Counted from the stretch's first letter, positions 13,244 through 28,718 are shown. The stretch is DNA of 32,000 nucleotides from Candidatus Saccharimonadota bacterium (GCA_041661045.1 JBAZVE010000001.1:1020001-1052000), one strand, 5' to 3'. Numbers and translations are program-made. The notes: generated by a model not told the origin, from the letters alone.

Positions 13244-14523
13244 GGTTTTTTCTTAGTTTTAACAGGTTTGCTTCTGCTCTTGGCTGATAAAGCCCGCCGA
13301 TTATAGCGATAGATGATATAGAACGCAAGCAAAACGAGGAATAAGCTGAATCCCAAAGCCTTAACAAGGAAACCGTAATCAAAAACTCGTACGCGTATTT
13401 CCATGGAATCAGATTGGCCTTTATCATCGGTGACCGTGAGCGTTGCAATTTGTAAACCGGTGGTGTCGAAACTTCGTGTTACTTGAGCCCCTTCCACTTG
13501 TTCTTCGCCAAATTGCCATACGAATTTCACTATCTGTCCATCATCTTGTGAAGCAGAGGCGTCAAAGTTGATTTCTTCTCCCAAACTGGCAATGATCACG
13601 GATTGATTCACTTGCGCGATTGGGGAGGGGTCGGAGGGGTCTGGATCTTCTTCGTTGCTCATTTCATCTCCATCAATATCTGAGTCCGTGTTGTCTCCCG
13701 TGCCGTCACCATCGGCATCAAACCATTCGCTTGCATCCGTGGGGAAGGGATCTTCTCCGTCATTTTTACCATCGCCATCTGTATCTGGATTGACTGGATT
13801 CGTATTTTGATTGGGCTCTTGATTGTTGAGCACGCCATCTCCATCTAGGTCTTCATCGGTTTCATCAGGAAGGCCGTCCCCGTCTTGGTCTTTGGTGTAC
13901 CTGGAATCTTCCGGCATTTGATCTTGTAGATCGGGAGTCCCGTCATTGTCGTCATCGGTATCCTTGTTGTTGCCCTGGCCGTCCCCATCCGTGTCTTTGG
14001 ACTCCGAGGAACTGATTGGGAAGGCATCTTCTTCATTGTTTACGCCATCTCCGTCTTTATCGGGATCGGTGGCATTGGGGATTCCATCGTGATCGGTGTC
14101 TTGTTGAACGGTGACTGTCTTTTGAATGGTGTTGTTGCCGGGGTTGTCGGAAGTGCCATCCCATGGAATCACCGTGACCGTGACCGTGTAGTCCCCGTAA
14201 CTGGGAGGAATCCAATCCACAAAAACCTCATCGGTTTTTCCGGCAAGGGCGGAAATGGGTTGATCGCTTCCAATGATGCCATCTTTGCTCGTGAAACGAA
14301 CGGTTCCCAACAGATCATTGGGGCTGGCATTTTGTACCGAGGCCCAAATACGGGTGGGAACTCCTTCAAAAAAATAGGAATTGCCAAACCACACGCTGGC
14401 TTCTGAAATCACCAAATCTCCACTCACGGCAAGCGCCGGATGAATGGGGAAAAGGATCAGCACAGAAAGCGAGAGGACGAGCAGGGTTAGACCTGATTTC
14501 GTCCAGGAGAGGAGGTTTTTCAT
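13240..14523 (-). CDS. Surface protein: signal peptide, CARDB-like domain, TSP3-like Asp-rich repeats, PKD domain, C-terminal TM anchor (427 aa)
   Basis: Start moved from 14640 to ATG 14523 ([32 protein letters not shown]); the longer version would overlap gyrA. Asp-rich repeats include [47 protein letters not shown] and [24 protein letters not shown]-like block is present ([23 protein letters not shown]...[11 protein letters not shown]). The end is a TM helix plus basic tail ([19 protein letters not shown]). An ATGA overlap joins it to the rpmE start. Confidence 0.8.
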
Positions 14524-14533
14524 AAATGGCGGT

Positions 14534-17185
14534 TTATGAGATAAGCGTGGCTTGTTCCTCTGTTTCCACTTCCTCTGCGTCTCCCTGATTTTCCGGGATC
14601 TCGCTTTGAGCAATGAAAGACATGGAGGCAACTTTATCATCCCCCTTCACACGCATTAGGTAAACCCCTTGTGTGGCACGGCCTCGGCTGGGGACGCTGT
14701 CCAAATTGGTTCGAATCATCACGCCTTTTTTGGAAACAATCATGATGTCGCCCACGGTCTCGGGTTCCAAAACCTTGGCTCCCACGAGTTTTCCGGTCTT
14801 ACTGGTGAGGTTTGCGGTTTTCACTCCACTTCCTCCACGCGTTTGGAAGCGGTACTCCTCGATTGGAGTGCGTTTTCCAAGTCCGTTTTCCATCACCACA
14901 AAGAGATCGGCATTGGCGGATTTTACGGTATCCATTTCCACCACTTCATCTTCGGCGCGCAGTTTGATTCCGCGAACTCCCATGGAAGCTCGACCCATTG
15001 GTCTTACATCTTCTTGATCGAATTGAATGCATTTTCCTTCGTAAGTCACAATCATGATGTGATCCCCCGTGCTGGTTTGTTTCACCCAAGAGAGGGAATC
15101 ATCTTCTCGCAGTTTGATGGCAATGAGTCCGGATTTTCGTACTGCCTTAAACTCAGCGACGGCTGTTTTCTTAACGGTTCCTTTTTTGGTCGCCATAAAG
15201 AGATAGTCACCCCCGAATTCTTCGTTGGTCACCACGAGCATGGCCGTTACGAACTCTTCTTTGGTGAGTTGGATTAGGTTGATGAGAGGAATCCCTTTGG
15301 CCTGTCGGCTGGCCTGAGGCAATTCGTACACGGGGAGTTGGAATACGCGACCGGTATTTGTGAAGAAAAGCAATTTATCGTGATTCTTGGCAAAACGCAT
15401 GATTTCGATTTCATCTTCTTCTTTGGTGCTCATGGCCACTTTGCCCTGACCTCCGCGTTCTTGGCGGCGGAAAGCGGTGGGGGGAACGCGTTTTACATAA
15501 TTTTCCTTGGTGAGCGTGACCACCATTTCCTCGTTGGGGATGGTGTCTTTTACAGAGAAATCGCCCAAAGCATGGGGCACAATCTCTGTACGCCGTGCGT
15601 CGCCGTAAGCTTCTTTGATTTCCTCGAACTCTTTGACCATAATCTTCTCCACTTTCTTGGTGTCGGCCAAAATGCCTTCCAGTTCTTCGATGAGGGCCAT
15701 TTTCTCCTTGAGTTCGTCTTCAATTTTGCTGCGTTCCAGTCCGGCGAGCGTTTGGAGACGCATTTCCAAAATGGCTTGAGATTGGAGATCGCTCAAATTG
15801 AATTTCTTCATGAGGGCGTCGTGCGCTTCTTCTTTGGTTTCACTCTTACGAATGGTGTCGATGACGGCATCAATATTGTCGAGCGCGATTTTGAGACCTT
15901 CCAGAATGTGAGCGCGGGCTTTGGCGATTTTGAGTTCGTAAACGGTTCGTCTCGTGATGACTTCCTTGCGGTGCTTGATGAAGTATTCCAGCACTTCCTT
16001 TAGATTGAGTAGACGAGGGAGGAGTCCATCCACCAAGGCAATCATATTCATATTGAAATTCGACTGCATGGTTGTGTACTTGTAGAGCTGATTGAGGATT
16101 TTGCTTGGGTAGGAATCCTTTTTGAGTTCGATGACGATTCTCATTCCCTCTCGATTGGATTCATCCCGAAGGTCGGAAATACCCACGATCTTTTTATCGG
16201 TCACCAATTCGGCTATTTTTTCAACCAAGGTGGCCTTGTTGATTTGATAGGGGATTTCGGTCACGATGATGCGATGACGGCCATTTTTCTCCTCTTGAAT
16301 TTCAGCTTTTGCGCGAACGGTGATTCCGCCGCGACCGGTGGTGTACATTTCTTTGATTGCTTCGCGGCCGTAAGCCGTGGCTCCGGTGGGGAAGTCGGGT
16401 CCTTTGATGAATTCCATGAGCCCGTCGATGTCGATTTCTGGATTTTTAGCGAGCGCAATGAGGGCTTCCATCACTTCCGTGAGGTTGTGAGGAGGAATAT
16501 TGGTGGCCATACCCACGGCAATACCCATGGTTCCGTTGAGCAGCAATTGAGGAATTCGAGTCGGGAGCACGCGGGGTTCACTGTGTCGTCCATCGTAGTT
16601 TGGAATAAAGTCCACGGTCTCTTTTTCGATGTCGGCCAACATTTCATCTGAAATCTTCTCCATCTTGGACTCGGTGTAACGCATGGCCGCGGCATTGTCT
16701 CCGTCGATGGATCCAAAGTTTCCCTGACCTCGAATCAATGGATAGCGCAGTGAAAAATCTTGGGCCATACGGACCATGGAATCGTAAACCGCTTGATCTC
16801 CATGAGGATGGTATTTGGCCAAAACTTCTCCCACCACAGCGGCTGATTTTCGGAATCCGGCACTGGACCGTAATCCGATTTCTTGCATCGCAAACAAAAT
16901 ACGGCGGTGCACCGGTTTCATACCGTCTCGAACATCGGGAAGCGCACGAGAAACAATGACGCTCATGGCGTAATCCAGGTAGCTTTCCTCCATTTCATCC
17001 ACCACATTGCGAGCCGTGATTTTTCCTTGCGCAAAAAGCTCAGTGGAAGGCTCGGGTTCCGCCGCCAAATGTGCCGCCGTTTCTTTAGCATCTTCTTCAC
17101 TTTCCACTTCTTCGGATTCTTCGGGCTGCTCTTTGGGGTCTTCGTCCTCGGGGTTTAGGTTTTCTTCAATTTTCTTTTTAGCCAT
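14534..17185 (-). CDS. gyrA: DNA gyrase subunit A
   Basis: 883 aa with [34 protein letters not shown] (catalytic Tyr), a GyrA-box-like QERGGQGKV, and C-terminal beta-pinwheel repeats. Confidence 0.95.
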
Positions 17186-17210
17186 AGAAATTTAAAAAGG
17201 AATCGCGCGT

Positions 17211-17219
17211 AGTTTATCA
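17211..17219 (-). promoter_or_regulatory. Candidate extended -10 promoter (TGaTAAACT) for the gyrA operon
   Basis: The reverse complement of 17211..17219 is tgataaact, 25 nt upstream of ATG 17185. Confidence 0.3.
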
Positions 17220-17248
17220 CAGCTCTTTGGAAGGTGGACTATAAGGAC

Positions 17249-17276
17249 TTGACATCTCGTGCTTTTTGTTTATTAT
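17249..17276 (+). promoter_or_regulatory. Candidate sigma70-type promoter for the 17324 gene
   Basis: TTGACA (17249..17254), a 16-nt spacer, then TATTAT (17271..17276), 47 nt upstream of ATG 17324. Its position inside the track's longer ORF (17234) argues for the downstream start. Confidence 0.45.
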
Positions 17277-17323
17277 TTGGACTTGATTTTGTCCGGTGTA
17301 TTTATTTCTATATTCTAAAATCT

Positions 17324-18418
17324 ATGGGTTCCGATCACATGGATCATGCAAGAATGGAGGTTGACGAGCGTGCTTTAAATGAAGTGGATACGCTTCGCGT
17401 TTCAATGGCAAAAAACAAGTTAATGAGTCTACTTCATGGCTTGTTTTTACCGGATCAGCCTGGATCTGCTACTTCTCTGGCACATCCTGTTTATCGCCCC
17501 GAAAACGGTGCCGATGTTGAAGCTCAGCAAATTGAGGAAATGAAAGCTAATATTACCAACTTTTTTACTCGAAAATATGATGCCTTTGCAAATGAGCTTG
17601 AGGGTTCAATTGCTTTGATTCATGAAAAACCAACGGGGCTTCGAGTTGGTCGCGAGCTGACGCATAGAACCTCTTCAATCCTCAGTTTGTTTAAAGGTGC
17701 TTTGGATAGGCAGGCGGAAGATTTGTTTCAGTTGTTTTTGGAAAAATGGAAGACTGAAGGCCCCGTTTCACTTGCCATTAAGCAAGCTGTTTTCACAGAA
17801 ACAGAGCGGCAGGAGTTGAGACAAGCTATAGCTGGAGTTCAGCGATTTTTTGGTTCATATGGTTACTTATCTAGGCTTCCGGCAGAAACTGCAAGTTTTG
17901 CTACACTTACTGAGGAAATAGAATTGCGTGCTTCCATGTTGGCCAATTTGACTGAACGACACGAGAGAATGAGCCATGATCGGAATAGACTTGAAAAACA
18001 AAGAGATAGGTTCGCTGTTGTAGCCGCCTTGGCATCTATTACAGCTTTGTTGTCCTTTGCCTCTCGAACGAATGGAGTGGAAGAAACGCCGACTATTGAT
18101 CTTTCTCAGGAAATGGCCGCTGCGTCTACTGAGCCGGCACTGGTACCTGAGAGTGCACATACTCAAATTTCAACTCAGGAAAGTCATTCCAAAAAGGGTG
18201 TCTGTGATGTTTGGCGAGAATTTACCAGTTTGGCCCAGCTTGAATCAGCTGGATGTATGGTAGCACCAAGACCTTGCCATGATGACTCCGATGGTGCGTC
18301 TGTGGGATGTCTGACCTCGACATACGATTTGCAGTGTTCCACAGCGAACTTGATGGTTACTGAAAGCCTTCCTTCGAATCCTGTTTCTATCCGTTGTACT
18401 CCTTTGGATAAGCGCTAG
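17324..18418 (+). CDS. Hypothetical single-pass membrane protein with helical N-terminal region and Cys-rich C-terminal tail (364 aa)
   Basis: ORF 17234..18418 trimmed to ATG 17324 (MGSDHMDHARMEVDE...). It has long helix-prone, charged segments and one hydrophobic helix (FAVVAALASITALLSFA). The C-terminal ~90 aa carries 7 Cys (VCDVW...GCMVAPRPCHDD...VGCLTSTYDLQCS...IRCTP). No family recognised. Confidence 0.55.
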   Translation: MGSDHMDHARMEVDERALNEVDTLRVSMAKNKLMSLLHGLFLPDQPGSATSLAHPVYRPENGADVEAQQIEEMKANITNFFTRKYDAFANELEGSIALIHEKPTGLRVGRELTHRTSSILSLFKGALDRQAEDLFQLFLEKWKTEGPVSLAIKQAVFTETERQELRQAIAGVQRFFGSYGYLSRLPAETASFATLTEEIELRASMLANLTERHERMSHDRNRLEKQRDRFAVVAALASITALLSFASRTNGVEETPTIDLSQEMAAASTEPALVPESAHTQISTQESHSKKGVCDVWREFTSLAQLESAGCMVAPRPCHDDSDGASVGCLTSTYDLQCSTANLMVTESLPSNPVSIRCTPLDKR

Positions 18419-18470
18419 AGTTTTCAGGGTTCGCCTAAACAGCGCCCGTTGAGCCCATTTTAAAAATAAA

Positions 18471-18533
18471 ATGGCTTGTTTAAGCCACAAATCGAATGAA
18501 AATCTGTGCGTGCGCACTGGTGTTTTTGCGAAC
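18471..18533 (+). repeat. Left copy of a 63-bp imperfect inverted repeat
   Basis: atggcttgtttaagccacaaatcgaatgaaaatctgtgcgtgcgcactggtgtttttgcgaac matches the reverse complement of 27340..27402 at 57/63 positions (hand alignment, ungapped). It is intergenic, 52 nt after the stop at 18418. Confidence 0.85.
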
Positions 18534-18670
18534 TTTCTTTTTTTCGGTCTTTCCCATTTACTCACTCAAAGTGCTTAAAAACCCCTCCATTTGGGATGGG
18601 ATCTGTGACACTCAGGGGACTACAAAATTTATGTTGATAGCACGATAGAGCCTTTACAGCCTTGGTAGGG

Positions 18671-19099
18671 TCAAGGGAAACGCCATGTCATTCGGGCTCT
18701 TTTTTGTTTTAATTCACTCTCTTCTTCTGGTGAAATCTTACCCTTAAACCCTACCGTTTTAAGCTCACTGACATCAAATCCACAGTAGAAAAAGAGTCTA
18801 GTCCATGGGCTCATTAAGTGAAAGTACGGATCGCCAATCTCATCTTTTGTGGGGTTCAACCAATATCCGTTGCGCATAAAATCCACCAGTTCTCTAAGAG
18901 TGTAACCTGCCATTCTGAGCATTCGCCATTTTTCCTCCCCATAGTCAAATACTGCATTGAATGCGACCTTTATAGGTGCGCCACTCTCCCTGAGTACTCT
19001 CAAAGAGTGTGAACTCTCGAAACCGCCCCTTTCTGCAAGAAGGTGCCTTCGTTCTTCAAGTGGATCTTCGGATAAAATGGGTTGATTAGAGAGTGTCAT
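18671..19099 (-). CDS. Hypothetical protein (142 aa)
   Basis: Clean ORF with balanced, non-repetitive composition (…WRMLRMAGYTLRELVDFMRNGYWLNPTKDEIGDPYFHLMSPW…). A candidate promoter lies directly upstream. No family recognised. Confidence 0.5.
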   Translation of the reverse strand: MTLSNQPILSEDPLEERRHLLAERGGFESSHSLRVLRESGAPIKVAFNAVFDYGEEKWRMLRMAGYTLRELVDFMRNGYWLNPTKDEIGDPYFHLMSPWTRLFFYCGFDVSELKTVGFKGKISPEEESELKQKRARMTWRFP

Positions 19100-19105
19100 A
19101 CTTGA

Positions 19106-19133
19106 ATGGTATCATAATTTACAAATATGGCAA
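19106..19133 (-). promoter_or_regulatory. Candidate promoter for the 142-aa gene (leader would be very short or absent)
   Basis: The minus strand reads TTGCCA (19133..19128), a 16-nt spacer ending in TGa, then TACCAT (19111..19106). Only 6 nt separate the -10 box from ATG 19099. Confidence 0.3.
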
Positions 19134-19169
19134 GTCGCGTAAGGAGCGGGGTAGCTATTTTTATGCGTC

Positions 19170-20528
19170 TTAGTTGAAGTTATGTTTGAACAGTTTTTGG
19201 AAAATCAGTAGGGAAAGGAAAACCACTGGCAAAGAGATGACTGCATTTTGTGGGTTGAGCTGATTTGTGGCGAATAAAACTGCAATGCTCATAAATCCTA
19301 AAATCAAACTCCAAAAAACAGCGTTTTCTTTAAGTTTCCAGTAGAGTGAGCCAAAAACTACGGGGAAAAGAGCGAGATTTAAACTTGCGAGCGAAAATCC
19401 AAGAGCCAAAATATTCTGGTAGAAAATGCCGATGGCTACCGCAAGCGCTATGAAGAAAACGATGAAAAAGCGAGTGAGTTTTTTCATGGATTCCTCACTG
19501 TATTTTTTTGAATAGTTCTTGAGGTCGCGAGTAAAGATTGAGGAAACCACGAAGGTCACAGTATCCGAAGATGAAAGTGCCACGGCGTAAAGCAAAACCA
19601 TGCCAAACTCTTTGAGTCCAAACGGAAGCAATTGAGAAAAGCCAGTCACCAAGGCGTCTTCGGGAGCGATATGTGGGAAAGACTGTTTTGTCGCAAGTCC
19701 AAGGATGCTGATGACGATGCCGAGTATCAGTAGGATAACGGCGGCATAACTGAGCCCCCGTTTCAAATTTCGTTCATCTTTTGTTGCAAAAATTCTTTGC
19801 CACAAATCCGGCGCAACCATGATGCCAAACCCCATAAGCACTAAAAAGCCGATGATGTTACCGATTCCCATTGTACCGAGATTAAATTCGGAAACAGGAA
19901 TGGCGGTTTTGCCAAAAAGAAAAACGCCCACGGATAAACTCATGACAAACATGATTATCATTTGGAAAAAATCGGTTCTGACCACTGCCTTGAATCCTGC
20001 AAGCAGAAGATAGATCAGCACAATCGCGCCGCCGATGATGACCGCAAGAAAATAGGGAATGGGGAAAATGGCTGATAACACTTTTCCGCTGATCACTAAA
20101 TTAACGATGAGCAGCAGGAAAAATTGCAAAACGAGGAAAAATGAAAACATGAGGCCGTTTTTCTTCCCTAGAATTTTGGAAAAATATTCCGGCATGGTGT
20201 ACACCTTCAGTTCGTCGGCTTTTTGTTTGATTTTAGGTGCAAGCCTTCTTACGAATAAAAATCCGAGCGCAATGCCCACAAAAAGCCAGATTGCGGAAAA
20301 TCCATAAAGGTAAAGAAATGCAATGTAAATTGAGAGAGTGGCGCCATCAAAAAAACCTGCGCTCATGGTGGCAGCAACTTGTACGCCCTCAAGCTTTCGT
20401 TCCGCAATCATAAAACCGTCTTCACTCTCTTTGCGTGCTGAAACAATGCCGATCGTCACAACTATTGCAATGTAGATGAGAAAAAAGATGATTGTGAGGG
20501 CCATGGGTCCCATGTTAGGCATTTTCAC
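19170..20528 (-). CDS. Sodium:solute symporter (SSS/SLC5-like) family transporter
   Basis: 452 aa, hydrophobic throughout with about 12-13 helix-length segments. The N-terminal pattern IAIVVTIGIVSARKESEDGFMIAERKL...VAATMSAGFFDGATL resembles PutP/PanF-type symporters. Confidence 0.75.
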   Translation of the reverse strand: MKMPNMGPMALTIIFFLIYIAIVVTIGIVSARKESEDGFMIAERKLEGVQVAATMSAGFFDGATLSIYIAFLYLYGFSAIWLFVGIALGFLFVRRLAPKIKQKADELKVYTMPEYFSKILGKKNGLMFSFFLVLQFFLLLIVNLVISGKVLSAIFPIPYFLAVIIGGAIVLIYLLLAGFKAVVRTDFFQMIIMFVMSLSVGVFLFGKTAIPVSEFNLGTMGIGNIIGFLVLMGFGIMVAPDLWQRIFATKDERNLKRGLSYAAVILLILGIVISILGLATKQSFPHIAPEDALVTGFSQLLPFGLKEFGMVLLYAVALSSSDTVTFVVSSIFTRDLKNYSKKYSEESMKKLTRFFIVFFIALAVAIGIFYQNILALGFSLASLNLALFPVVFGSLYWKLKENAVFWSLILGFMSIAVLFATNQLNPQNAVISLPVVFLSLLIFQKLFKHNFN

Positions 20529-20558
20529 CTCAAAGGTCTAGGAAAACTGGTGCTTTTA

Positions 20559-20567
20559 TGATACAAT
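20559..20567 (+). promoter_or_regulatory. Candidate extended -10 promoter (TGaTACAAT) for the VirB4-like/giant-ORF pair
   Basis: tgatacaat at 20559..20567, 26 nt upstream of ATG 20594, in the 65-nt divergent gap shared with the symporter gene. Confidence 0.4.
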
Positions 20568-20593
20568 GATAAGATTAAAAAGAACCACCACGC

Positions 20594-22780
20594 ATGGCTG
20601 ACAACACGCCGATCGTACAAAGCGCTACAGTAAGCCCCGCAAAGCCTGCGGCTGCTTCGGTTACCCCTCCGGTAACTCCTTCGGTTGTGGCGCCACAAGC
20701 CAGTGCTGCGGCGGCCAAAGTGAATACGGCGGCGCAAAAAAATCTGATTGAGAAGAAACAGATTCTTGAAGCGGAGAAGCTTTTTCAGGAAGGAATTGCC
20801 TCCATTCGGGACTTGATTGCGCCTTCTTCATTTGAAGTGGCTTATGATCTTGTGAAAATCGACGGGCTCTATTCTCAAACCTTTTTTGTTTACACTTACC
20901 CGCGCTACATCGACAGCAACTGGCTCTCTCCTGTTGTGAATTATGATGTGACCATGGATATTTCGCAGTTTGTTTATCCGATTTCTTCGGAAGACATCAT
21001 GAAAACCTTGAGAACCAAGGTGGCGCAACTTCAATCTTCCATTCGCATTGCGGCGGATAAGGGCATTGTGCGCGATCCTGCACTGGAAACCGCTTTGGAG
21101 GATGCGGAGCAACTTCGAACCGAATTGCAACGAGGTCAGGAGAAATTCTTTCAATTTGGACTTTATTTTACGGTTTACTCCGCCAATGAGGATGAACTCC
21201 GCAAGGCGACCAAGGAATTGCAAAGCTTGCTTGCCGGAAAATTGGTGCTCAGCAAACGCGCCGATTTGCAGATGGAGCGAGGCTTCACTTCCACGATTCC
21301 TTTGTGTTTGGACGACATTGCGGTGCAACGCAACATGAACACCTCACCGCTTTCCACCACTTTCCCTTTCATTTCTTCCGAACTCACTTCCAATGATGGA
21401 ATTTTGTACGGACTCAATCGTCACAATGAATCGCTGATTATTTTTGATCGTTTCTCTTTGGAAAATGCCAACTCCACGGTTTTTGCCAAGTCGGGAGCCG
21501 GAAAGTCGTATGCCGTGAAACTGGAAATCTTGCGATCTTTGATGTTTGGTACCGATGTGATTGTGATTGATCCGGAGAATGAATACCGCGCGCTGTGTGA
21601 CACGGTGGGTGGGACTTATCTTACGGTTTCTTTGAACTCGGATCGCCGCATTAATCCTTTTGATTTGCCCAGCCCCATGGAGGGTGAGGAGCTCAAGCCT
21701 GGAGATTTGCTGCGCAGCAGTGTCATTAATCTTACGGGTCTTATGAAATTGATGTTGGGGAAGATCACGGCTCAGGAAGAGGGACTTTTGGACAAAGCGC
21801 TCATCGACACCTATTCCACCAAGGGAATCACCATGGATATGGTGGATCCTTCTCCCTACCCTGTGCCCACAATGGTGGATTTTTACAATGTGCTCTCCGC
21901 GATGGAAGGGGCCGCCGATATGGCGCAACGGATCGCCAAGTTTGTGACGGGGACTTATGCCGGAGTCTTTAATAAAGAAACCAATGTGACCCTCGATACC
22001 GGGCTCATGGTCTTTTCTGTACGGGATTTGGAGGATGAGCTCCGGCCCGTGGCCATGTATATTATTTTGAATTACATTTGGAACCGGGTTCGTTCCACCC
22101 TCAAAAAGCGCATTTTGGTGATTGATGAGGCCTGGACTTTGATGCAGCACGAAGACAGCGCGAAGTTTTTGTTTGGACTCGTGAAGCGCGCTCGAAAGTA
22201 CTACCTCGGCGTGACCACCATCACTCAAGATGTGGAAGATTTCATCAACAGTCCGATGGGCAAACCGATTGTCACCAACTCCTCCATGCAGCTTTTGTTG
22301 AAGCAGTCTCCATCGGCCATTGAGCCTTTGGCCAAGGTTTTCAACCTCACGGAAGGGGAAAAATATATGCTGCTGAACTCCGGAGTGGGGCAAGGGCTCT
22401 TTTTTGCCGGTCTCAAGCATGTGGCCATTCAAGTGATCGCCTCCTTCAGCGAAGATAAAATTGTGACCACCAATCCTGAAGAACTCTTAGCCCAAAGCAA
22501 CGCCGCCGCCGCTTTTGAGACGGAGCAGGCTACTGTGGTGGCGAAGGCTACGGAACGAGCAACGGCTGCGTTGGCTGAGGCTGCGCCTGTGGCTGAAGCG
22601 GCTCCCGTCCTCCCCCCTGAAGAAGCCAAAATGGAGGCCGGATTCACTGAAAATGTTGCCACTGTTTTGGACCAAGCGGTGGAAGCACCCACTTCCGCCG
22701 TCCTCACCGACCCCGCCAATGCCACTGGGGCTCCAGCTCCCGTGCAAGAGGTTCCGGTGGTGTTTGAGGAAAAGAAGTAA
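20594..22780 (+). CDS. virB4: VirB4/ConE-like type IV secretion / conjugation ATPase
   Basis: 728 aa. The N-terminal domain pattern IAPSSFEVAYDLVKIDGLYSQTFFVYTYPRYIDSNWLSPVVNYDVTMDISQFVYP is typical of Gram-positive VirB4 homologues. Walker A is FAKSGAGKSYAVK and Walker B is RILVIDEAWTL; the TTITQDVEDF region is also present. Low-complexity Ala/Pro-rich segments flank it at both termini. Confidence 0.8.
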   Translation: MADNTPIVQSATVSPAKPAAASVTPPVTPSVVAPQASAAAAKVNTAAQKNLIEKKQILEAEKLFQEGIASIRDLIAPSSFEVAYDLVKIDGLYSQTFFVYTYPRYIDSNWLSPVVNYDVTMDISQFVYPISSEDIMKTLRTKVAQLQSSIRIAADKGIVRDPALETALEDAEQLRTELQRGQEKFFQFGLYFTVYSANEDELRKATKELQSLLAGKLVLSKRADLQMERGFTSTIPLCLDDIAVQRNMNTSPLSTTFPFISSELTSNDGILYGLNRHNESLIIFDRFSLENANSTVFAKSGAGKSYAVKLEILRSLMFGTDVIVIDPENEYRALCDTVGGTYLTVSLNSDRRINPFDLPSPMEGEELKPGDLLRSSVINLTGLMKLMLGKITAQEEGLLDKALIDTYSTKGITMDMVDPSPYPVPTMVDFYNVLSAMEGAADMAQRIAKFVTGTYAGVFNKETNVTLDTGLMVFSVRDLEDELRPVAMYIILNYIWNRVRSTLKKRILVIDEAWTLMQHEDSAKFLFGLVKRARKYYLGVTTITQDVEDFINSPMGKPIVTNSSMQLLLKQSPSAIEPLAKVFNLTEGEKYMLLNSGVGQGLFFAGLKHVAIQVIASFSEDKIVTTNPEELLAQSNAAAAFETEQATVVAKATERATAALAEAAPVAEAAPVLPPEEAKMEAGFTENVATVLDQAVEAPTSAVLTDPANATGAPAPVQEVPVVFEEKK

Positions 22781-22797
22781 AAATAAAAATTATTTCC

Positions 22798-25700
22798 ATG
22801 CCAGATAATGAAGATCTAGGATTTCAACCTGACGAAGAAGAAGCCAAATTCAATCCTGATGAATTTACCGATGACGAAATTAGGGCGATGGGGGGGTATA
22901 CAAAGGGGCGAATTCTCAAGTTGTTATTCGGTGATCCTGATCAGAAAAAACTGATGACAAGAATAAGTGAAAGAGAGAAAAAGGATAAAGTAGTTTTGGA
23001 CCAGATTAAAAAGTACACGGGGAAATACAATCGAATTTGGGGTCATAGAGTTGTATCTCCTGTTTTTAAAAAACTGAAAAATACCTTCGGTGAGAACCCG
23101 GAGTTTTGGGATATAGTGTATTCCTATGAGAATCGGGAGCACATGTTTGAGACTTTGCTAGAATGTTCTGAAATTTATGGTGACAACTTTGATTTATTCG
23201 TTCTCATACACTCCTATTTGCAAAAGACTGGGAATGGTCAACACTCTCTACCTCGAACCAGTACATTTATTGAAGGGCTAGCTCATTATAAAGACCTCTA
23301 CGGGGACGATCCCGAGAAGTTAAAAACTTTAATGGATCCATTCTTAGGATTCTATGTTCATAGTAATTCCGATGAAGATTTTGCTTTGCTCTTTGGTGAA
23401 GATGTAAAAGCATTGTGTGAGGGTCATCTGGATCGGTTTGGAAAATTTGTAAGCGCATTTCAGTCTTCCGGCAGAAAAGGATTGAATTTTTTGATCGAAT
23501 TCGCTGATGTTTACAAGGAAGATGAGCTAATACTTGAGCAATGTTTGAGAATCTTGAGTCCTTTCCGATCTACGCGTCTCTGTGAAACCAATCTTTTAGG
23601 TAAAATCTTAGAGAATAAGAATCTATTTGTAGCTAGAAAGGATTTATTTTCATACTTTTTTAAGTTCTACGAGAAAATTATGGCAAATGGACTTAATGGT
23701 CATGGCCATTCTGAAAAATCGGGAACCAACCTAGTTGCCCTGGTGGACTTTATCAGCTTCTTTAAAGAGGATCCGGAAACCTTGGATTATATGTTTGATT
23801 TTTATGAAAAAAATACGACACAGGACTATAAGGGTTTAAATGGGGTGAATGGGACTTATTCATTTGAAACATTTTTAAGATTATTTATTGATGTGTCAAA
23901 AAAGTTTTCAAATGATACTCACAGAAAAGAAAATCTTATAAAATTTTTTGAATATTGTTTGAAAGCTGACATACGAATTGATTTTTTTGTTGATTTTTAT
24001 AATTCACTTCCAACAGAAATTGTTTCAGATGATGCGAGACTTGATTTTTATTTGAACCACACCTTTGGTAGGCCCAATACATATGGTTATGTGAGAAGCG
24101 AAATACAATCTTTTATCGAGGTGGAGAATTTTTTTGGCAAGGATAGTAAAGAATTTAATTTTTTCCTGAATGATCCCGATCAAATTAGGGTTTTGGAGGA
24201 ATGCCTGCGTGCTTTTTTATCCACCCCTGAAATAGTAAAGTTTTATATCTCACTGATTGCTTCAGGTCATGGCGACGATGCTAAAGCGCTTGCTTGTTTT
24301 AGAGAGATGTATACAAAAAACCCTGATGATATCAAGTTTTGTTATGATTTAGTGTGTGAGGATAAAAATGCTGCAGGAATTATTGCGAGCAATTATGGGG
24401 AAAACTTAATTGGTAAAAACACTGATAAAAATTGGATAAAATTTTGTTTTGACTTAGTAAAAACTGATCCCGACGCAGCTTTGATTTTAATGGGATTCTA
24501 TGCACTTGCTGAAAAAGCCTCCTTTGATAAAGACCTCGTTAAATTTTACTTTGATTTAATAAGGGAGAACCAGGAAGCGGGGAAGGTTTTGATAAATGGT
24601 TATCAGCGTTTAATTGGAATTGATAGGGAGGCTGCAAGGTTCTACTTTGACCTGATAAAGGAGGACAAAGAAGCGGGGAGGATCTTGGCTGATGTTTGGG
24701 AAAGGAGCATTGAGGGAAACAGAGAGAAGGCAAGGTACTACTTTGACTTGTGTAAAGAAGATAAAAAGGCTGCGAGGGTGTTAGGTCAGTACGGTGATTT
24801 AGTCCTGGGTGACTTGAAGGTGTCTCGTTTTGTATTTGATCTGCTTAAGGCTGACAGAAAAGATATTTGTGATGGATTACTGGAAATTAGGGCGTTTTTT
24901 CAAAGGGATAGGAAAAATGATTTGAATAAATTGGAAATTTCAGTAAAATTCCTGGAAATCAGCGACCAGATAGACCTGAAAACATTAAAAAACTTTTATA
25001 AAATTTATCAAAGGGATGGGGAGGAAAATGCCAAAAAATACATAGAAGGACTGGTCCGGAAATCCAAAGGATTGATCGGTGAGAAGATCCCTATGGATTT
25101 GAGAAAAGATGATGAATATCTCTTTTATGTGACACGCGTTTACCCAAGTGGGAATTATTCCAATCATGAGAGGAATTTGGCTTGTGGGGATAGGTTGGAG
25201 CACTTAAAGGCTTATAAATTTAATAAAGAGGGTTATCCGGCCGAGATGACTGGTTTGCTGGGTTATCAATTAAAGGAGGGGCAGGTGGAGAACGAGGACT
25301 TGCTCAATAATTATAAGAAGAGGCTGGCTGGAATAAGAGACTTTGTGGCCAGCAGAGGGCCAGATAATAAGGCATTGCAAAAAGCCTTTGAAGAAAAAAT
25401 CGATTCGATTTTTGAGAAAAATGTTGCTGAGGAGTTCAAGCAACTTAAAAAGCTGACACTCAAGGAAAAATTATTGATTTTGGCCTTGAATATTATTATC
25501 AAAAGGGCGAGGCAGGAACCTTACGAATACGATGTTGGAGATTTGATCGTTGAATATAAATACGCTTTTCATGAAAATCTGGAGGCTTACATCCAAAGAA
25601 CTTCGGATGAAACTAGCAGGTTTAAAGATCCTGTTAGTAAGAATTTTAATCTGTGGAGAGAGCTTTCTGTGATTTATGGAGAGAATTTGAAGCATGTTTT

Positions 25701-26820
25701 GAGGCATGATCTTTTTGAGGAATTTGAGAGAGATAGTAAGCACAAAGCCGATATTGAGAATATCTTTGATTCGTTGATGCCTGGAAAGGAAAAATTTGCC
25801 TTAAACGATAAACAAAAAGAGCGATTTAAAACTACTTTAGAAAATCCACATATCCCAGAGAAAGGCCATATCATAAAAGTAAAAAACAAAGAAACGGGAA
25901 TGGAAGAGGAAAAATATAAACCAGGGAAAGCTGAAGAGTTGTACAAGCAAGTTTATGGTATTTTTTCTTCGAATATTAAATTTAAGGATGACGAAGAAAA
26001 AGCAAAATTTACAGAACAGGTGAAAATGATTGTTGAGAACTGTAAGGAGGGCGAGCTTGTGAACGCTGAAAAGTTTTTTTCTGAAGCGATTCCGCAACTT
26101 TTGAGATTGAGGCAGCGCTATTTACAAAATCTAAATGGAAAATTGGAAGAACTCTTTAATGCCGATATCAACTTAATTGGTGCTGAGGTTTCTAAATATG
26201 ATGAAATTTTGGAGGTTGAGATGAAGCAAACACAAATGGGCGGAGCAAAACATAAAGCGGTTGGGAAGAGTGCAAAAAAACGCAAAATCCGCGGATATAT
26301 TACGAAAACCAAGGAATCGGCAAACGCCAGAATGGGTGCGTATTTATGTATTTCCGGTGATGAAACCATGTGGAAAAATCCGAATTATTTTGAACTCGTA
26401 ATGAAAGATGAAGAAAGTGGGAAGTGTATTGGAGTCTGTATGCTAATGAACATTAAGGCGAAAGACGGGAAGAAATATTTATGGTTTGGGCCGAATCCAT
26501 TTGAAGGATTTTTAGGGCAAGTTTCATCGGATCAGTGTTATAGATATATGTACGACACTATAACGAACTTTGCTGCTGAAAACGGCTATGACGGAGTTGT
26601 GGTGCCTCCAGAGGATGGACAAATTTTGGGGGCATGTACAAACCGAGGAGGAGATTTCCCAGATTTGATAAAGGCTTCACGCTTAAGAGATGCAAAGGGC
26701 GCATTGAGGATTGTTGAATTTGGTGAGCCGCAAAAATTAGGCACACACTCAGGTGTTAGCTATTCTTATTCCAATGGAGCTTTGATTTGGGCCAATACCT
26801 CAAAATCTCGAAAAGTTTAA
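22798..26820 (+). CDS. Giant hypothetical soluble protein (1340 aa) with internal helical repeats; function unknown
   Basis: Uninterrupted 4023-nt ORF starting 17 nt after the VirB4-like stop, with no intervening promoter-like sequence. It has an acidic N-terminus, no hydrophobic TM-length segment, an array of FYFDL-type repeats, a Lys-rich linker and a C-terminal globular region. It is visibly AT-rich relative to its neighbours. Confidence 0.75.
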   Translation: MPDNEDLGFQPDEEEAKFNPDEFTDDEIRAMGGYTKGRILKLLFGDPDQKKLMTRISEREKKDKVVLDQIKKYTGKYNRIWGHRVVSPVFKKLKNTFGENPEFWDIVYSYENREHMFETLLECSEIYGDNFDLFVLIHSYLQKTGNGQHSLPRTSTFIEGLAHYKDLYGDDPEKLKTLMDPFLGFYVHSNSDEDFALLFGEDVKALCEGHLDRFGKFVSAFQSSGRKGLNFLIEFADVYKEDELILEQCLRILSPFRSTRLCETNLLGKILENKNLFVARKDLFSYFFKFYEKIMANGLNGHGHSEKSGTNLVALVDFISFFKEDPETLDYMFDFYEKNTTQDYKGLNGVNGTYSFETFLRLFIDVSKKFSNDTHRKENLIKFFEYCLKADIRIDFFVDFYNSLPTEIVSDDARLDFYLNHTFGRPNTYGYVRSEIQSFIEVENFFGKDSKEFNFFLNDPDQIRVLEECLRAFLSTPEIVKFYISLIASGHGDDAKALACFREMYTKNPDDIKFCYDLVCEDKNAAGIIASNYGENLIGKNTDKNWIKFCFDLVKTDPDAALILMGFYALAEKASFDKDLVKFYFDLIRENQEAGKVLINGYQRLIGIDREAARFYFDLIKEDKEAGRILADVWERSIEGNREKARYYFDLCKEDKKAARVLGQYGDLVLGDLKVSRFVFDLLKADRKDICDGLLEIRAFFQRDRKNDLNKLEISVKFLEISDQIDLKTLKNFYKIYQRDGEENAKKYIEGLVRKSKGLIGEKIPMDLRKDDEYLFYVTRVYPSGNYSNHERNLACGDRLEHLKAYKFNKEGYPAEMTGLLGYQLKEGQVENEDLLNNYKKRLAGIRDFVASRGPDNKALQKAFEEKIDSIFEKNVAEEFKQLKKLTLKEKLLILALNIIIKRARQEPYEYDVGDLIVEYKYAFHENLEAYIQRTSDETSRFKDPVSKNFNLWRELSVIYGENLKHVLRHDLFEEFERDSKHKADIENIFDSLMPGKEKFALNDKQKERFKTTLENPHIPEKGHIIKVKNKETGMEEEKYKPGKAEELYKQVYGIFSSNIKFKDDEEKAKFTEQVKMIVENCKEGELVNAEKFFSEAIPQLLRLRQRYLQNLNGKLEELFNADINLIGAEVSKYDEILEVEMKQTQMGGAKHKAVGKSAKKRKIRGYITKTKESANARMGAYLCISGDETMWKNPNYFELVMKDEESGKCIGVCMLMNIKAKDGKKYLWFGPNPFEGFLGQVSSDQCYRYMYDTITNFAAENGYDGVVVPPEDGQILGACTNRGGDFPDLIKASRLRDAKGALRIVEFGEPQKLGTHSGVSYSYSNGALIWANTSKSRKV
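24325..24900 (+). repeat. Intragenic array of six ~31-37-aa helical repeats (consensus [KR]F.FDL.KED.EA...L)
   Basis: Successive units begin DDIKFCYDLVCEDKNAAGII, IKFCFDLVKTDPDAALIL, VKFYFDLIRENQEAGKVL, RFYFDLIKEDKEAGRIL, RYYFDLCKEDKKAARVL and RFVFDLLKADRKDICDGL. Degenerate relatives (FSYFFKFYEKI, LDYMFDFYEKN, IKFFEYCLKAD, VKFYISLIASG, LKNFYKIYQRD) extend roughly from 23650 to 25050. Confidence 0.8.
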
Positions 26821-27254
26821 GTGCGTACCGCCAGAACTCTTCTTCTCATTGTTTCCATGAGATCTTTTGGATTTTCTCTTAGAGGTCCCCACTCTTTTAT
26901 AAACTTAGGATCTCCAAAATCATTTTTGTTTGGGTCTAGGGGTATGACTCTTACTCCTAAACGAGTTCCTCTTTCAACACGGTGTTGGATAAGGCTTATT
27001 CCATCATCTATTACAAGGACATAGCTCGGTAGATAAATTCCGCCGTTTTCTACCGCATCGAGGATGGCATCCACTTGAGCGGGGTGTGCCACAAACAGAT
27101 CCCCATCAATACGACCTACGCCTCCGCCTTTTCCCCTTACAAAAAGAGTACCTTCTACCGGAGAAAAAGTTTCAAATATAGGATTATTTTCTATCCTGGG
27201 GGGGAATGTGCCTTGGGGAAGGCCTGTGCGTTCTGTATTTTGATCCAATCTCAT
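26817..27254 (-). CDS. Hypothetical protein (145 aa)
   Basis: Clean ORF with a protein-like sequence (…GKGGGVGRIDGDLFVAHPAQVDAILDAVENGGIYLPSYVLVIDDG…). Its stop codon overlaps the stop of the convergent giant ORF. No family recognised. Confidence 0.5.
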   Translation of the reverse strand: MRLDQNTERTGLPQGTFPPRIENNPIFETFSPVEGTLFVRGKGGGVGRIDGDLFVAHPAQVDAILDAVENGGIYLPSYVLVIDDGISLIQHRVERGTRLGVRVIPLDPNKNDFGDPKFIKEWGPLRENPKDLMETMRRRVLAVRT

Positions 27255-27261
27255 GTTGATT

Positions 27262-27290
27262 TTATAAATATTAAAGAAGGTTTTTTACAA
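27262..27290 (-). promoter_or_regulatory. Candidate promoter for the 145-aa gene (leader would be very short or absent)
   Basis: The minus strand reads TTGTAA (27290..27285), a 17-nt spacer, then TTATAA (27267..27262), 7 nt upstream of ATG 27254. The context is AT-rich, so the false-positive risk is high. Confidence 0.25.
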
Positions 27291-27339
27291 TATAGGTTGT
27301 TCTTTTTTTTGTCTAGACTCCTCCGCAAAAATATCAATG

Positions 27340-27402
27340 GTTCGTAAAAACACATGTGCGCACGCACAGATTTTCCCTCGATTTGTGGCTTAAGCAAGCC
27401 AT
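27340..27402 (-). repeat. Right copy of the 63-bp imperfect inverted repeat
   Basis: The reverse complement is atggcttgcttaagccacaaatcgagggaaaatctgtgcgtgcgcacatgtgtttttacgaac, identical to 18471..18533 at 57/63 positions. It is intergenic, 6 nt after the stop of the 233-aa gene and 85 nt upstream of ATG 27254. Confidence 0.85.
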
Positions 27403-27408
27403 CTCCAT

Positions 27409-28110
27409 TTACGCATCTTTTTCACCTTTTTTCCTGTCGACGCAAGCTAGTGCGAATTGACTCTCACTTGTGGAGGGGCTACTAGAAGTGTGCCACTGAG
27501 GATCATAACCTCTATCGGTTGGAGATCTTGGCGAAACAAGCGTTAAAACTCGCCCATCCAGATAAAAAAACTGATGACCAACTTCTCTATTGCGGCGAGA
27601 ACTGGGTGGATCAAAGGTGCTATAATCTTCTGGATCTAGGGCCTCAAAAATACGACGAAGCCTTTCATCGACGAGTTGAATCGGGGAATAATTATAAGGT
27701 GAGTATTCATCTCCCTGTAGTTTTTTTGCAATACCCAAGGCCTCTTCAGGATCAGAGAAAACTTGCACCACTACCCTATCTGTTCTAGTTTCATCCCAAC
27801 GGCTATAACGAAGGAGCCCCCTATAGTTTGCTGTACAGCCCTCTATCATTCTGGGCTCACCGAGAACCTGCGCTAGGCCCTCCATTTTCCCCTGCAAAAT
27901 CTCAGGTTCATCACAAATTCCAAAACTTGGACAGGAGAATAAATCCATATACCTATATACATGGGAAATTTCTTCACGAACATCTAAAGCCACACGAAGG
28001 GCAAGCAAATCAAAACCCCCCTCCTTAAATCGCTGGGCCATCTCATCCACTAGCTCCTGAGGAAGTCGACCTTGATCAGTCAATGAGCTTGTCGTATCTA
28101 AATCTAACAT
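27409..28110 (-). CDS. Hypothetical protein (233 aa)
   Basis: Clean ORF with balanced composition and a Ser/Pro-rich C-terminal tail (…HTSSSPSTSESQ…). No family recognised. Confidence 0.5.
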   Translation of the reverse strand: MLDLDTTSSLTDQGRLPQELVDEMAQRFKEGGFDLLALRVALDVREEISHVYRYMDLFSCPSFGICDEPEILQGKMEGLAQVLGEPRMIEGCTANYRGLLRYSRWDETRTDRVVVQVFSDPEEALGIAKKLQGDEYSPYNYSPIQLVDERLRRIFEALDPEDYSTFDPPSSRRNREVGHQFFYLDGRVLTLVSPRSPTDRGYDPQWHTSSSPSTSESQFALACVDRKKGEKDA

Positions 28111-28238
28111 AGCTTTAGAGAAGTGTATAAGGACACAAGGTAAAATACCTTTTATGTATTGTCAATAGTGCGTGGGATGGTGCCTGGTGCGGCTTCTCCG
28201 CCTTGCCAAGCCCCGGGGCATTGTGAGAAAGTCGGGGC

Positions 28239-28718
28239 ATGCGCGATCAAGTGTGGTTACAGGGGCAGTTGGATTTTCTTCTGGAGAAGCATTTTTCGGA
28301 TATGGAGAGGCCGAATAGGATTACGATTCAGTTTGGGCGGAAGGCGCAGCGGAGGCTGGGGTCTATTCGAATGAGTCGGGATAAAAAGAGAAGCAGCATT
28401 ATTATCAATGGGATTTTTCGACAGTTGGAGGTGCCAGAGGAGGTGGTGCGGGCCACGATTGCGCATGAGCTTTGCCACTATGCGCATGGGTTTTGTTCAC
28501 CCTTGGAGCAGAAATATAAAAGTCCGCACGCGGGGCAGGTGATTGAACGGGAACTTCGAAAAAGAGATTTGGAACTGTTTCATCGCTTCGAAAAAGAGTG
28601 GACAAAGGCGCATTGGCCTAAAATCCTTGCGAATGAGTTTGGGGCGAGGGCGCAGCGGACTATAAGGCGTCGTTCAAAGCCTTCAGCCATTCGTCTTCTT
28701 CGACGACTGTTTCGCTGA
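28239..28718 (+). CDS. SprT-like / HExxH zinc-metallopeptidase-fold protein (159 aa)
   Basis: ITIQFGRKAQRRLGSIRMS...SIIINGIF...VVRATIAHELCHYAHG matches the SprT-like layout: an RxxG segment, a short hydrophobic strand, then HExxH. The Arg-rich C-terminus overlaps the convergent peptidase gene by 59 nt. Confidence 0.5.
   Translation: MRDQVWLQGQLDFLLEKHFSDMERPNRITIQFGRKAQRRLGSIRMSRDKKRSSIIINGIFRQLEVPEEVVRATIAHELCHYAHGFCSPLEQKYKSPHAGQVIERELRKRDLELFHRFEKEWTKAHWPKILANEFGARAQRTIRRRSKPSAIRLLRRLFR

Follow-up and report, generated by a model that had tools for sequence, protein, structure and literature searches.

The 32,000 nt stretch of the Candidatus Saccharimonadota genome analysed here (referred to below as the window) contains two 63 nt imperfect inverted repeats, one on each side of a VirB4-like gene. 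We found that each repeat is a free-standing (solo), intergenic copy of a module that otherwise lies within the genes of a large family without annotation, the products of which have an HNH nuclease-like C-terminus. On balance, we favour the interpretation that the two copies are orphan sites of this widespread family, which would join a ParB/Noc-like helix–turn–helix (HTH) domain to an HNH nuclease, and that they are not the ends of anything; they probably also act as terminators. The evidence that carries this interpretation is the homology and dispersal of the module, the covariation that preserves the dyad symmetry of its DNA, the covariation between that DNA and the family protein, and the synteny of related genomes.

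A pair of solo modules in the window

A repeat search of the window recovered the two copies as an inverted pair with 63 nt arms, 90 % complementary and separated by 8806 nt; the runner-up was a pair of 32 nt arms at 75 %. Read directly and without gaps, the copies are identical at 57 of the 63 nt. Within the window, the 20-mer GAAAATCTGTGCGTGCGCAC and the 25-mer ATGGCTTGYTTAAGCCACAAATCGA are each found exactly twice, once per copy, and two or more matches were found in none of 100 dinucleotide-preserving shuffles, even with three mismatches allowed. The similarity between the copies is far beyond chance. An unfiltered covariance model search of the window detected no third copy. The two copies are in intergenic DNA, copy 1 between the stop codon at 18418 and the stop codon of a minus-strand open reading frame (ORF) at 18671, and copy 2 between an ORF start at 27254 and a stop codon at 27409; in the sense orientation the preceding stop is 52 nt away for copy 1 (394 aa ORF) and 6 nt away for copy 2 (233 aa ORF). 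The sequence-only reading of this DNA had described the repeats, their intergenic positions and stop distances, a ggctt-N4-aagcc hairpin with one substitution in the loop, the gtgcgcac palindrome and the T5 runs, and was correct in each. The features of the two copies, in which H1 and H2 denote the two inverted repeats of the module, are as follows.

18471..18533, plus strand: module copy 1, solo and non-coding (covariance model R1, 70.7 bits, E=4e-13; 49 tblastn matches)
18472..18487, plus strand: H1 of copy 1, TGGCTT-GTTT-AAGCCA, with 6 bp arms and a 4 nt spacer (helix 1, 82.5 % of cells paired, conserved in sequence)
18498..18517, plus strand: A-tract and H2 core of copy 1, GAAAATCT-GTGCGTGCGCAC, in which the 12-mer at 18506-18517 is a 'V-R-A-H' type palindrome
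18523..18527, plus strand: T5 run 3' of H2 in copy 1
27340..27402, minus strand: module copy 2, solo (R1 match, 71.1 bits; 38 tblastn matches)
27386..27401, minus strand: H1 of copy 2, TGGCTT-GCTT-AAGCCA
27356..27375, minus strand: A-tract and H2 core of copy 2, with the 12-mer GTGCGTGCGCAC at 27367-27356
27350-27346, minus strand: T5 run after H2 in copy 2

All six differences between the copies fall outside the H1 arms and the 20 nt core, which together make up 32 of the 63 positions (chance (31/63)^6, about 0.014), and the copies look maintained rather than decaying. The possibility of a template/variable repeat pair of a diversity-generating retroelement was rejected because, on direct reading, the six differences are not adenine-specific. 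The window contained no tRNA and no Rfam family at gathering score, and blastn gave no match to known phages or plasmids. At E<=1, Rfam returned only chance sub-threshold matches, such as Histone3 (17.8 bits versus a gathering score of 34, E=0.025), in which H1 of copy 1 and its ACAAA tail (18468-18511, plus strand) resemble the metazoan histone 3' stem–loop; this resemblance is a chance one of a 6 bp stem, a 4 nt loop and an ACCCA-like tail.

The module is part of an HNH nuclease gene family

The exact 19-mer AAAATCTGTGCGTGCGCAC was scanned against species-representative genomes and metagenomes. Five true loci were found among the species-representative genomes, in metagenome-assembled genomes (MAGs) of Candidatus Peribacteria and Gracilibacteria, and nine in metagenomes; alignment of the loci showed the whole module and not the core alone. 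A match in Victivallis (L002) was discarded as chance, being limited to a core of 19-21 nt. At loci L005, L007 (= L004), L012, L013 and L014, the module lies in frame within intact ORFs of 270-300 aa, and the module region of the family genes reads ...ETLVRDE(K)QNGLFKP(L/Q)(F/I)ExKSVRAH(T)..FELS. All coding copies that we found belong to one family and occupy one position within it.

This family is spread across the Peregrinibacteria and Gracilibacteria. One search gave 670 homologues (E<=1e-5), and an exhaustive search gave 5273 cluster representatives (E<=1e-3). Members have no significant match in Pfam or NCBIfam, the Pfam HNH match being weak (E=0.25-0.37). The C-terminus, however, matched PHROG HNH-endonuclease families in five of five members (phrog_22514, E=3e-8 to 1e-4), and residues C247, C252, H260, H261, C280, H283 and H284 are invariant in the family, in keeping with the His-His pair and Cys/His zinc ligands of a beta-beta-alpha-metal motif. 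A sequence search of the HNH domain against the PDB was negative. An AlphaFold model with a predicted local distance difference test (pLDDT) score of 86.7 shows a helical N-terminal domain (residues 17-162) and a C-terminal part (183-299), with a strand–helix–strand–helix arrangement predicted by AlphaFold2 at 258-299. The module-encoded residues 161-180 have a pLDDT of about 52 and no secondary structure, so that in the model the module encodes a disordered linker of the family protein.

The best PDB fold matches of the model in Foldseek were Noc and ParB DNA-binding domains, with a probability of 0.99 but E=0.15 and a template modelling (TM) score of 0.55-0.61 normalized to the target; given the weak E-value, the modelled likeness of the N-terminal domain to ParB/Noc is suggestive only. 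No ParBc Pfam match to the ParB/Srx N-terminal (CTPase) domain was found in 40 members, and the protein starts with the helical DNA-binding region. There was no Pfam DUF222 match among the members tested, and no family match on viral contigs. Literature on Peribacteria or Peregrinibacteria with palindromes or HNH held nothing relevant, and the module and its family appear undescribed within the literature searched.

The tblastn matches tabulated above were obtained with 270 family proteins; they were 16-27 residues long and fell on the modules only, and the same search found no remnant of either protein domain beside the window modules. In the family frame, copy 1 reads GLFKPQIE*KSVRAHWCFCE, with a TGA stop inside, and copy 2 reads GLLKPQIEGKSVRAHMCFYE, open across the unit and with flanks that lack homology. 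The TGA of copy 1 is aligned to a GGA of copy 2. Since gyrA (883 aa) and other long ORFs are intact under table 11, an alternative genetic code was rejected, and copy 1 is simply non-coding.

DNA symmetry constrains the linker codons

The module of approximately 60 bp consists of H1 (TGGCTT-N4-AAGCCA), a 10 nt linker, and the H2 palindrome of 12-24 bp between A- and T-tracts. The centres of H1 and H2 are 32 bp apart, about three helical turns, and indels, frequent immediately 5' of H1 and 3' of H2, are almost absent between the two, indicating that the spacing is constrained. At the protein level, many representatives in the range P0241-P0390 have insertions of up to about 40 residues right after the palindrome-encoded residues, and insertions between H1 and H2 are all but absent; an insertion hot spot of the gene lies just 3' of the site.

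The four residues that follow 'KS' vary between members (VRAH, LHVQ, LRAQ, LPGQ, VHVH, VPGH, VPGN, LRPQ, LCAQ, TPGR, LYVQ and others), and yet in 99 of 120 proteins this four-residue site can be encoded as a perfect 12 nt palindrome. Among distinct types, 16 of 31 are palindrome-encodable, whereas 2000 shuffles gave 3.2 on average and never more than 10. Palindromes of 12-24 nt were confirmed in the DNA of five members that had not been selected by the 19-mer, and a divergent paralogue at L001 carries another at the same place.

Five members: TTGCACGTGCAA; AAAGTTGTTCCCGGGAACAACTTT (24 nt, perfect); AAAGTCTGCG-AC-CGCAGACTTT; TCTGTACGTACAGA; AAAGTACGCCCGGGCGGACTTT
Divergent L001 paralogue: TGACCGGCGCCGGTCA

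Palindrome centres of both CACGTG and CCCGGG are present in the family, and the central two nucleotides are complementary in 5-6 of the 8 types seen.

Seven solos and 11 gene copies align without gaps over 68 columns. In this alignment, 7 of the 11 pairs of H2 changed on both sides, with a covariation of 0.167 versus 0.088 in shuffles (reached by 0 of 500) and far lower values in slid registers. H1 is conserved by sequence and not by covariation, the paired third bases of GGC (Gly) and AAG (Lys) being invariant in 18 of 18 copies. Only AAA, paired with TTT, is used for the Lys that precedes H2. At the amino acid level, the visible covariation can be traced to nucleotides 5 and 8 of the 12-mer, the second bases of the codons for the second and third of the four residues. 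This inner pair is only 2 nt apart, which makes pairing in a hairpin impossible, and an RNA hairpin as the sole constraint on H2 was rejected on these grounds. The covariation is most naturally read as dyad symmetry of the DNA duplex. What is conserved inside the gene is the symmetry of the DNA and not the protein sequence, and the symmetry of the palindrome forces the covarying amino acids.

Covariation between the palindrome and two residues of the N-terminal domain

All alignment columns of the family protein were scanned for association with palindrome type. Residue 144 (LP[Q]KALETL), at the start of a later helix, accounted for 1.32 of the 1.55 bits on the inner pair (z=13; next column 0.46), and residue 92 (EQQVR[R]ALNL), in the HTH recognition helix, for 0.75 bits on the outer base (z=8). 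The residue/base code is chemically sensible.

Gln144: inner G-C (RA, RP, CA, RT)
Lys144: inner C-G (PG, SG)
Asn, Ser, Thr, Cys, Ile or Val144: inner A-T (HV, YV)
Arg92: outer G (V...H / V...N)
Leu, Thr, Glu or Val92: outer C (L...Q)

In pairs of proteins that otherwise share at least 70 % identity, 238 of 244 changes of inner type were accompanied by a change of residue 144. Block linkage was rejected as the source of the residue 144 association, as the intervening variable columns (164, 170 and 172) have a mutual information of 0.29-0.34 versus 1.32. Both associations were replicated in the 150 best cluster representatives, which are no more than 50 % identical to one another. At residue 144, Q occurred with G-C in 23 of 27, K with C-G in 17 of 17, and N, S, C, T, A or V with A-T in 24 of 30 (chi-square 98, p=2e-20); at residue 92, Arg occurred with outer G in 30 of 32, versus 6 of 43 for other residues (Fisher p=9e-13).

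Because residues 92 and 144 track the base pairs of the palindrome, H2 is most likely the binding site of the family protein's own N-terminal domain, as judged from sequence covariation. We propose that the native location of the module is inside the coding sequence of the Peregrinibacteria/Gracilibacteria family, where it would encode the linker, and that H2 would be bound as duplex DNA by the N-terminal domain, acting as a dimer. The window copies, which are of the GTGCGTGCGCAC ('VRAH') type, would be the target of an Arg92/Gln144-type member, encoded at another place in the genome, that binds and perhaps nicks them. With an A-tract, palindrome and T-tract placed behind genes, the copies probably also halt transcription, or hinder it as a roadblock, in at least one direction.

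Solo copies in other genomes

Solo modules were found at other loci by the 19-mer scan and, outside the 19-mer-selected loci, with covariance model R1, which was built from 18 copies. Coordinates are those of each locus.

L001, 4012-3951, minus strand: solo between the convergent leuS and pilin genes
L003, 1502-1563, plus strand: solo between co-directional genes
L006, 2387-2448, plus strand: solo on the strand opposite to both neighbouring genes, with a stop 4 nt away
L009: solo, full module
L011: solo between convergent genes
L008 and L015: partial solo copies
L019, 12401-12468: solo directly behind VirB4, in the slot and orientation of window copy 2, with palindrome ACGCCCGGGCGT (found by R1)
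L021, 561-628: solo that starts at the stop codon of a DUF6941 gene, with palindrome TCTGTGCGCACAGA (found by R1)

One MAG supplied two of these (L003 and L006). In seven of eight interpretable cases, the solo lies 0-52 nt behind the stop codon of the gene reading into it. Solos occur in either orientation; none lies between divergent genes, and those between co-directional genes are nearer to the upstream stop than to the downstream start. No recurrent gene family was found beside the solos, the adjoining genes being mutually unrelated. The solos at L019 and L021 are of other palindrome types, and are perfect palindromes even though they are non-coding.

The sequence-only reading had offered, as one of its two options, a repeated terminator-like RNA module after stop codons. 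The repetition was confirmed, with the module dispersed behind unrelated genes; the RNA part needs revision, as the palindrome behaves like a protein-binding site in duplex DNA and not solely like an RNA hairpin, and the module is homologous to the inside of HNH nuclease genes.

Two solos had unusual structures. The L001 solo is composite, with a second H2-like hairpin, AAAAGTGTGCGCGGGCACACTTTTT, across a shared palindromic H1 (3995-4047 on the plus strand, 4012-3951 on the minus strand), so that R1 matches this locus in both orientations (31.6 bits on the plus strand). At L011 (5252-5319) the palindrome centre is flipped, GTGCGCACGCAC versus GTGCGTGCGCAC in the window, without change in the arms or in the solo-type tail TTTTTATGCGAAC, as though the central 4 nt had been inverted.

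Functions and origins of the solos

Solos could function at the RNA level only, as factor-independent (bidirectional) terminators or 3'-end stabilizing hairpins exapted from a decayed HNH gene, with no protein reader at these places. Their position just past stop codons, and nearer to the upstream stop in co-directional pairs, is consistent with such a role, as is the succession of A-tract, stem and T-tract. A scan for terminator-like sites flagged copy 2 on the minus strand (TGTGCGTGCGCACA TGTGTTTTTA) and H1 of copy 1, also on the minus strand (18488-18471, followed by TTTATTTTTA), where the A-rich stretch at 18462-18470 gives a T-run after H1 on the opposite strand. The sequence after H2 is richer in T in solos than in gene copies (9.3 versus 6.8 T per 20 nt, p=0.006; longest run 4.4 versus 3.1, p=0.003), and the L001 and L019 modules, directly behind the stops of pilin and VirB4, have long stems and T-runs. 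However, the stems of the window copies are short (4-5 perfect pairs, with T5 starting 5-6 nt after the stem) and their folding is at the level of shuffles, the L021 solo has no T-run, and the linker, A-tract and H1 sequence are conserved far beyond the needs of a terminator. A hairpin also cannot explain a covarying inner pair that is 2 nt apart and tracks a protein residue. We consider a role confined to RNA rather unlikely. A promoter-like site for the 145 aa gene follows copy 2, at 27315-27287.

The solos may instead be inert relics, the last pieces of HNH-family genes deleted from variable slots. At L010 (525-868) we found a decaying family gene in which residues 84-121 abut residues 165-299, with a stop just upstream; the deletion junction coincides with the 5' boundary of the module, and the locus may represent a transitional stage from gene copy to solo. 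Internal deletions that abut the module, the occurrence of solo palindrome types in genes (VRAH, TPGR and LCAQ), the differing solo and gene types at L021, and the location of solos in variable slots would all follow from such an origin. Against this, at least six solos have identical boundaries, neither protein domain has left a remnant beside the window copies, copies 1 and 2 are 90 % identical amid unrelated flanks with differences that avoid the functional cores (p about 0.014), non-coding solos retain perfect palindromes, and outside the 19-mer the solos resemble one another more closely than they resemble gene copies. We regard the inert-relic reading as unlikely.

Another candidate is a miniature mobile element resembling repetitive extragenic palindromic (REP) elements or miniature inverted-repeat transposable elements, possibly mobilized in trans by the HNH-family protein. 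The module is a discrete unit with constant boundaries, a near-identical pair occupies two loci of one genome, and, outside the core, solos group with one another. Copies 1 and 2 are closest to each other (80 % identity outside the core), and they share the solo-specific tail TTTTT(AT)GC(GAAC) with solos from other samples across metagenomes; together, the likeness of the two copies and the common tail suggest that solos are copied or converted as units. Yet no REP doublets, target-site duplications or transposase were found in the window, the unit has no terminal inverted repeats, and an HNH plus HTH protein has no known transposition mechanism. Density is also low: there are two copies in the 32 kb of the window and about two solos in ~165 kb of unbiased related loci. 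Mobility of this kind seems to us distinctly unlikely.

We also considered a small peptide translated from the ATG of each window copy (MACLSHKS[N/R]ENLCVRT...), given that the similarity starts exactly at this ATG and that the frame is open for 22 and 35 codons. This idea was rejected, and we give it practically no credence: the frame is broken by early stops in other solos (L001, MACVSQKTD*; L003, MPYSSHKLE*), the start codon is variable (GTG, ACG, CTG), and there is no Shine–Dalgarno sequence at the proper distance.

It should be noted that several observations weigh against the orphan-site interpretation that we favour. The 32 kb window holds no family gene, and the cognate protein of both sites is thus unobserved. 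The solos were mostly ascertained by the exact 19-mer, and the conservation of their core is partly a product of that ascertainment. The palindrome of the L021 solo (TCTGTGCGCACAGA) is unlike that of the family gene on the same contig, and the paralogue near the L001 solo likewise has a different palindrome (TGACCGGCGCCGGTCA); such mismatches indicate that solos can be orphaned or can be relics, and the L010 deletion suggests a relic origin. With regard to termination, RNA folding of copies 1 and 2 was no better than that of shuffles (z about -1.3), and terminator-like sites are not enriched in the region.

The repeats do not bound an island

The sequence-only reading had also raised the possibility that the repeats are terminal repeats or recombination sites of an acquired island. 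Its listing of the enclosed ORFs was accurate, and its report of no transposase or integrase among them was borne out by Pfam. The organization of the region is as follows.

14534..17185, minus strand: gyrA, left backbone anchor
17186..20593: variable slot A, from gyrA to the VirB4-like gene, with a 394 aa ORF (17234-18418, plus strand), copy 1, a 142 aa ORF (18671-19099, minus strand) and an SSS transporter (19170-20528, minus strand)
20594..22780, plus strand: VirB4/TraG-like ATPase, a conserved backbone gene and not cargo
22781..28238: variable slot B, from VirB4 to the SprT-like gene, with a 1340 aa ORF (22798-26820, plus strand), a 145 aa ORF (26817-27254, minus strand), copy 2 and a 233 aa ORF (27409-28110, minus strand)
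28239..30327: right backbone anchors, a SprT-like gene (28239-28718, plus strand) and an S41 protease (28660-30327, minus strand)

Pfam searches of the 10 ORFs between 14.5 and 30.3 kb identified gyrA, the SSS transporter, the TraG/VirB4-like ATPase, the SprT-like gene and the S41 protease, with several ORFs assigned to no family; no transposase, integrase or recombinase was found among all 10, and NCBIfam gave no match for the orphan ORFs.

More than 8000 homologues of the VirB4-like gene were found, with identities of up to 82-83 %, and the genomic context of three of the closest (L016, L018 and L019) was read. These relatives share the order glmS ... ruvA - tgt - L31 - PKD protein - gyrA (minus), one or two small variable genes, and VirB4 (plus), followed rightward by a SprT-like gene (plus), an S41 protease (minus), a 745 aa gene and gyrB. 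The backbone of the window has the same order and orientation, but the SSS gene, the 1340 aa ORF and the orphan ORFs are missing from the locus in all three relatives. The gyrA/VirB4 slot holds a nucleotidyltransferase and HEPN pair in L018 (9143-9954), and unrelated small ORFs are found in L016 (9285-9926) and L019 (9476-9946; 12540-12818); this slot is a recurrent site of gene turnover. Slot B of the relatives is 17-127 nt long or contains one 92 aa ORF, and L019 has its solo module there. In L016 and L018 the backbone is present and R1 detected no copy of the repeat, the very outcome that the sequence-only reading had listed as evidence against an island boundary.

The VirB4 core and the backbone are thus kept without the other enclosed genes, which means that 18471-27402 is not present or absent as a unit. 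The reading of an 8.9 kb island is refuted: each repeat lies in a separate variable slot, and the central gene is ancestral. The inverted orientation of the copies around VirB4 is incidental. An island or invertible segment would account for a long, high-identity inverted match that brackets orphan ORFs and for the lower GC content (0.35-0.40) of the 1340 aa ORF, and inversion by homologous recombination between the copies is conceivable in principle. However, VirB4 is a core syntenic gene in its ancestral orientation, two of the three relatives also lack the repeats, and the unit is found singly at unrelated loci of other genomes. There is also no target-site duplication, the outer flanks (...AAATAAA before copy 1 and CTCCATTTAC after copy 2, on the plus strand) showing no direct repeat. 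We judge terminal repeats or recombination sites of such a segment to be very improbable.

Comparison with known systems

In the ParB/parS and Noc/Noc-binding site (NBS) systems, a symmetric 16 bp site is read by a recognition helix and later helices, and four residues, including an Arg to Gln change, switch specificity between parS (TGTTTCAC-GTGAAACA) and NBS (TATTTCCC-GGGAAATA) (PMC7383237). The family described here resembles these systems in that an HTH appears to read a dyad-symmetric site without a spacer, with a few specificity residues that involve Arg, Gln and Lys swaps, although in the family we infer binding from covariation; in both, the chromosome bears additional, scattered copies of the site. 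One B. subtilis parS is located inside spo0J. Unlike ParB and Noc, the family has no detected ParB/Srx CTPase domain and has a C-terminal HNH nuclease; its site lies in the codons of its own predicted disordered linker and exists in at least 16 variants, versus two for ParB/Noc, and the module has a second conserved inverted repeat (H1) 32 bp away.

The combination of an HNH motif (CX4C..HH..CXXHH) with a helical DNA-binding region recalls HNH homing and nicking endonucleases of the I-HmuI type and the mycobacterial DUF222-HNH 'REP13E12', as do the varying loci of family genes and the existence of pseudogenes (L010). The family differs from these in lacking an intron or intein context, in that its putative cognate site is intact inside the gene and not split, and in having no Pfam DUF222 match and no viral-contig match. 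As short, repeated 3'-intergenic palindromes in either orientation with A/T tracts, the solos are similar to intrinsic terminators, REPs and bacterial interspersed mosaic elements, paired DNA uptake sequences of Neisseria and Correia elements. However, the module is low-copy, has a long core shared across species, is homologous to a coding segment and has no known RAYT-type transposase. Rickettsia palindromic elements also occur both in frame in ORFs and between genes, but these are inserted secondarily in many unrelated genes, whereas the coding copies of the module are at one position that is ancestral to the family. What is new here is a probable ParB-like site and reader pair fused to an HNH nuclease, with the site in the gene's own linker codons and with free-standing intergenic copies.

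A clean and long inverted-repeat pair around orphan genes was no island boundary, and it was the synteny of relatives that settled the question. The repeat led to a large unannotated family of candidate phyla in which the dyad symmetry of DNA limits the amino acids of a linker, and in which two putative DNA-contacting residues co-vary with the site. If the binding that we propose is true, every gene supplies a DNA-binding domain along with the site that it recognizes, giving thousands of matched pairs for the study or engineering of HTH specificity. The conservation of the nuclease across Peregrinibacteria and Gracilibacteria makes its function worth seeking. We speculate, with little confidence, that the ParB-HTH/HNH proteins and the module constitute a self-recognizing nuclease system of an undescribed kind, in which every protein has its own site in its linker codons, specificity has diversified into many orthogonal protein/site pairs, solos are live targets that the enzyme binds and nicks and the slots around VirB4 are hot spots of recombination or turnover. 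Were this the case, the slots flanking VirB4 might also be entry points for the family gene itself.

Other features of the window

The 1340 aa ORF (22798-26820, plus strand), with a GC content of 0.35-0.40 versus about 0.48, has a strong positive GC skew and contains 96 nt (32 aa) tandem repeats (family D4), especially at 24529-24782. Neither Pfam nor NCBIfam gave a match for it, and the VirB4-SprT slot of the three relatives lacks it. The 142 aa (18671-19099, minus strand) and 145 aa (26817-27254, minus strand) ORFs have a 13-residue motif in common, LNPTKDEIGDPYF and LDPNKNDFGDPKF respectively (BLASTP E=0.005, single comparison); they are otherwise unrelated, and their orientation relative to their own repeat differs. 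Paralogy of the flanking genes was rejected, the 394 aa and 233 aa ORFs being unrelated.

The VirB4-like ORF (20594-22780, plus strand) has 728 aa against 768-809 aa in its closest homologues, a deficit of 40-80 residues. Only 65 nt lie between this ORF and the divergent SSS gene, and the ORF may be truncated at its N-terminus or have a misassigned start. Finally, two large minus-strand ORFs (648-4442 and 13240-14640) contain repeated ...CCATCTCCATC... units at 1380-1770 and 13640-14100 (families D1, D2, D5 and D6), which suggests Asp-rich, thrombospondin-type-3 (TSP3)-like calcium-binding repeats. The orthologue in the relatives of the gene adjoining gyrA has PKD and TSP3 matches.

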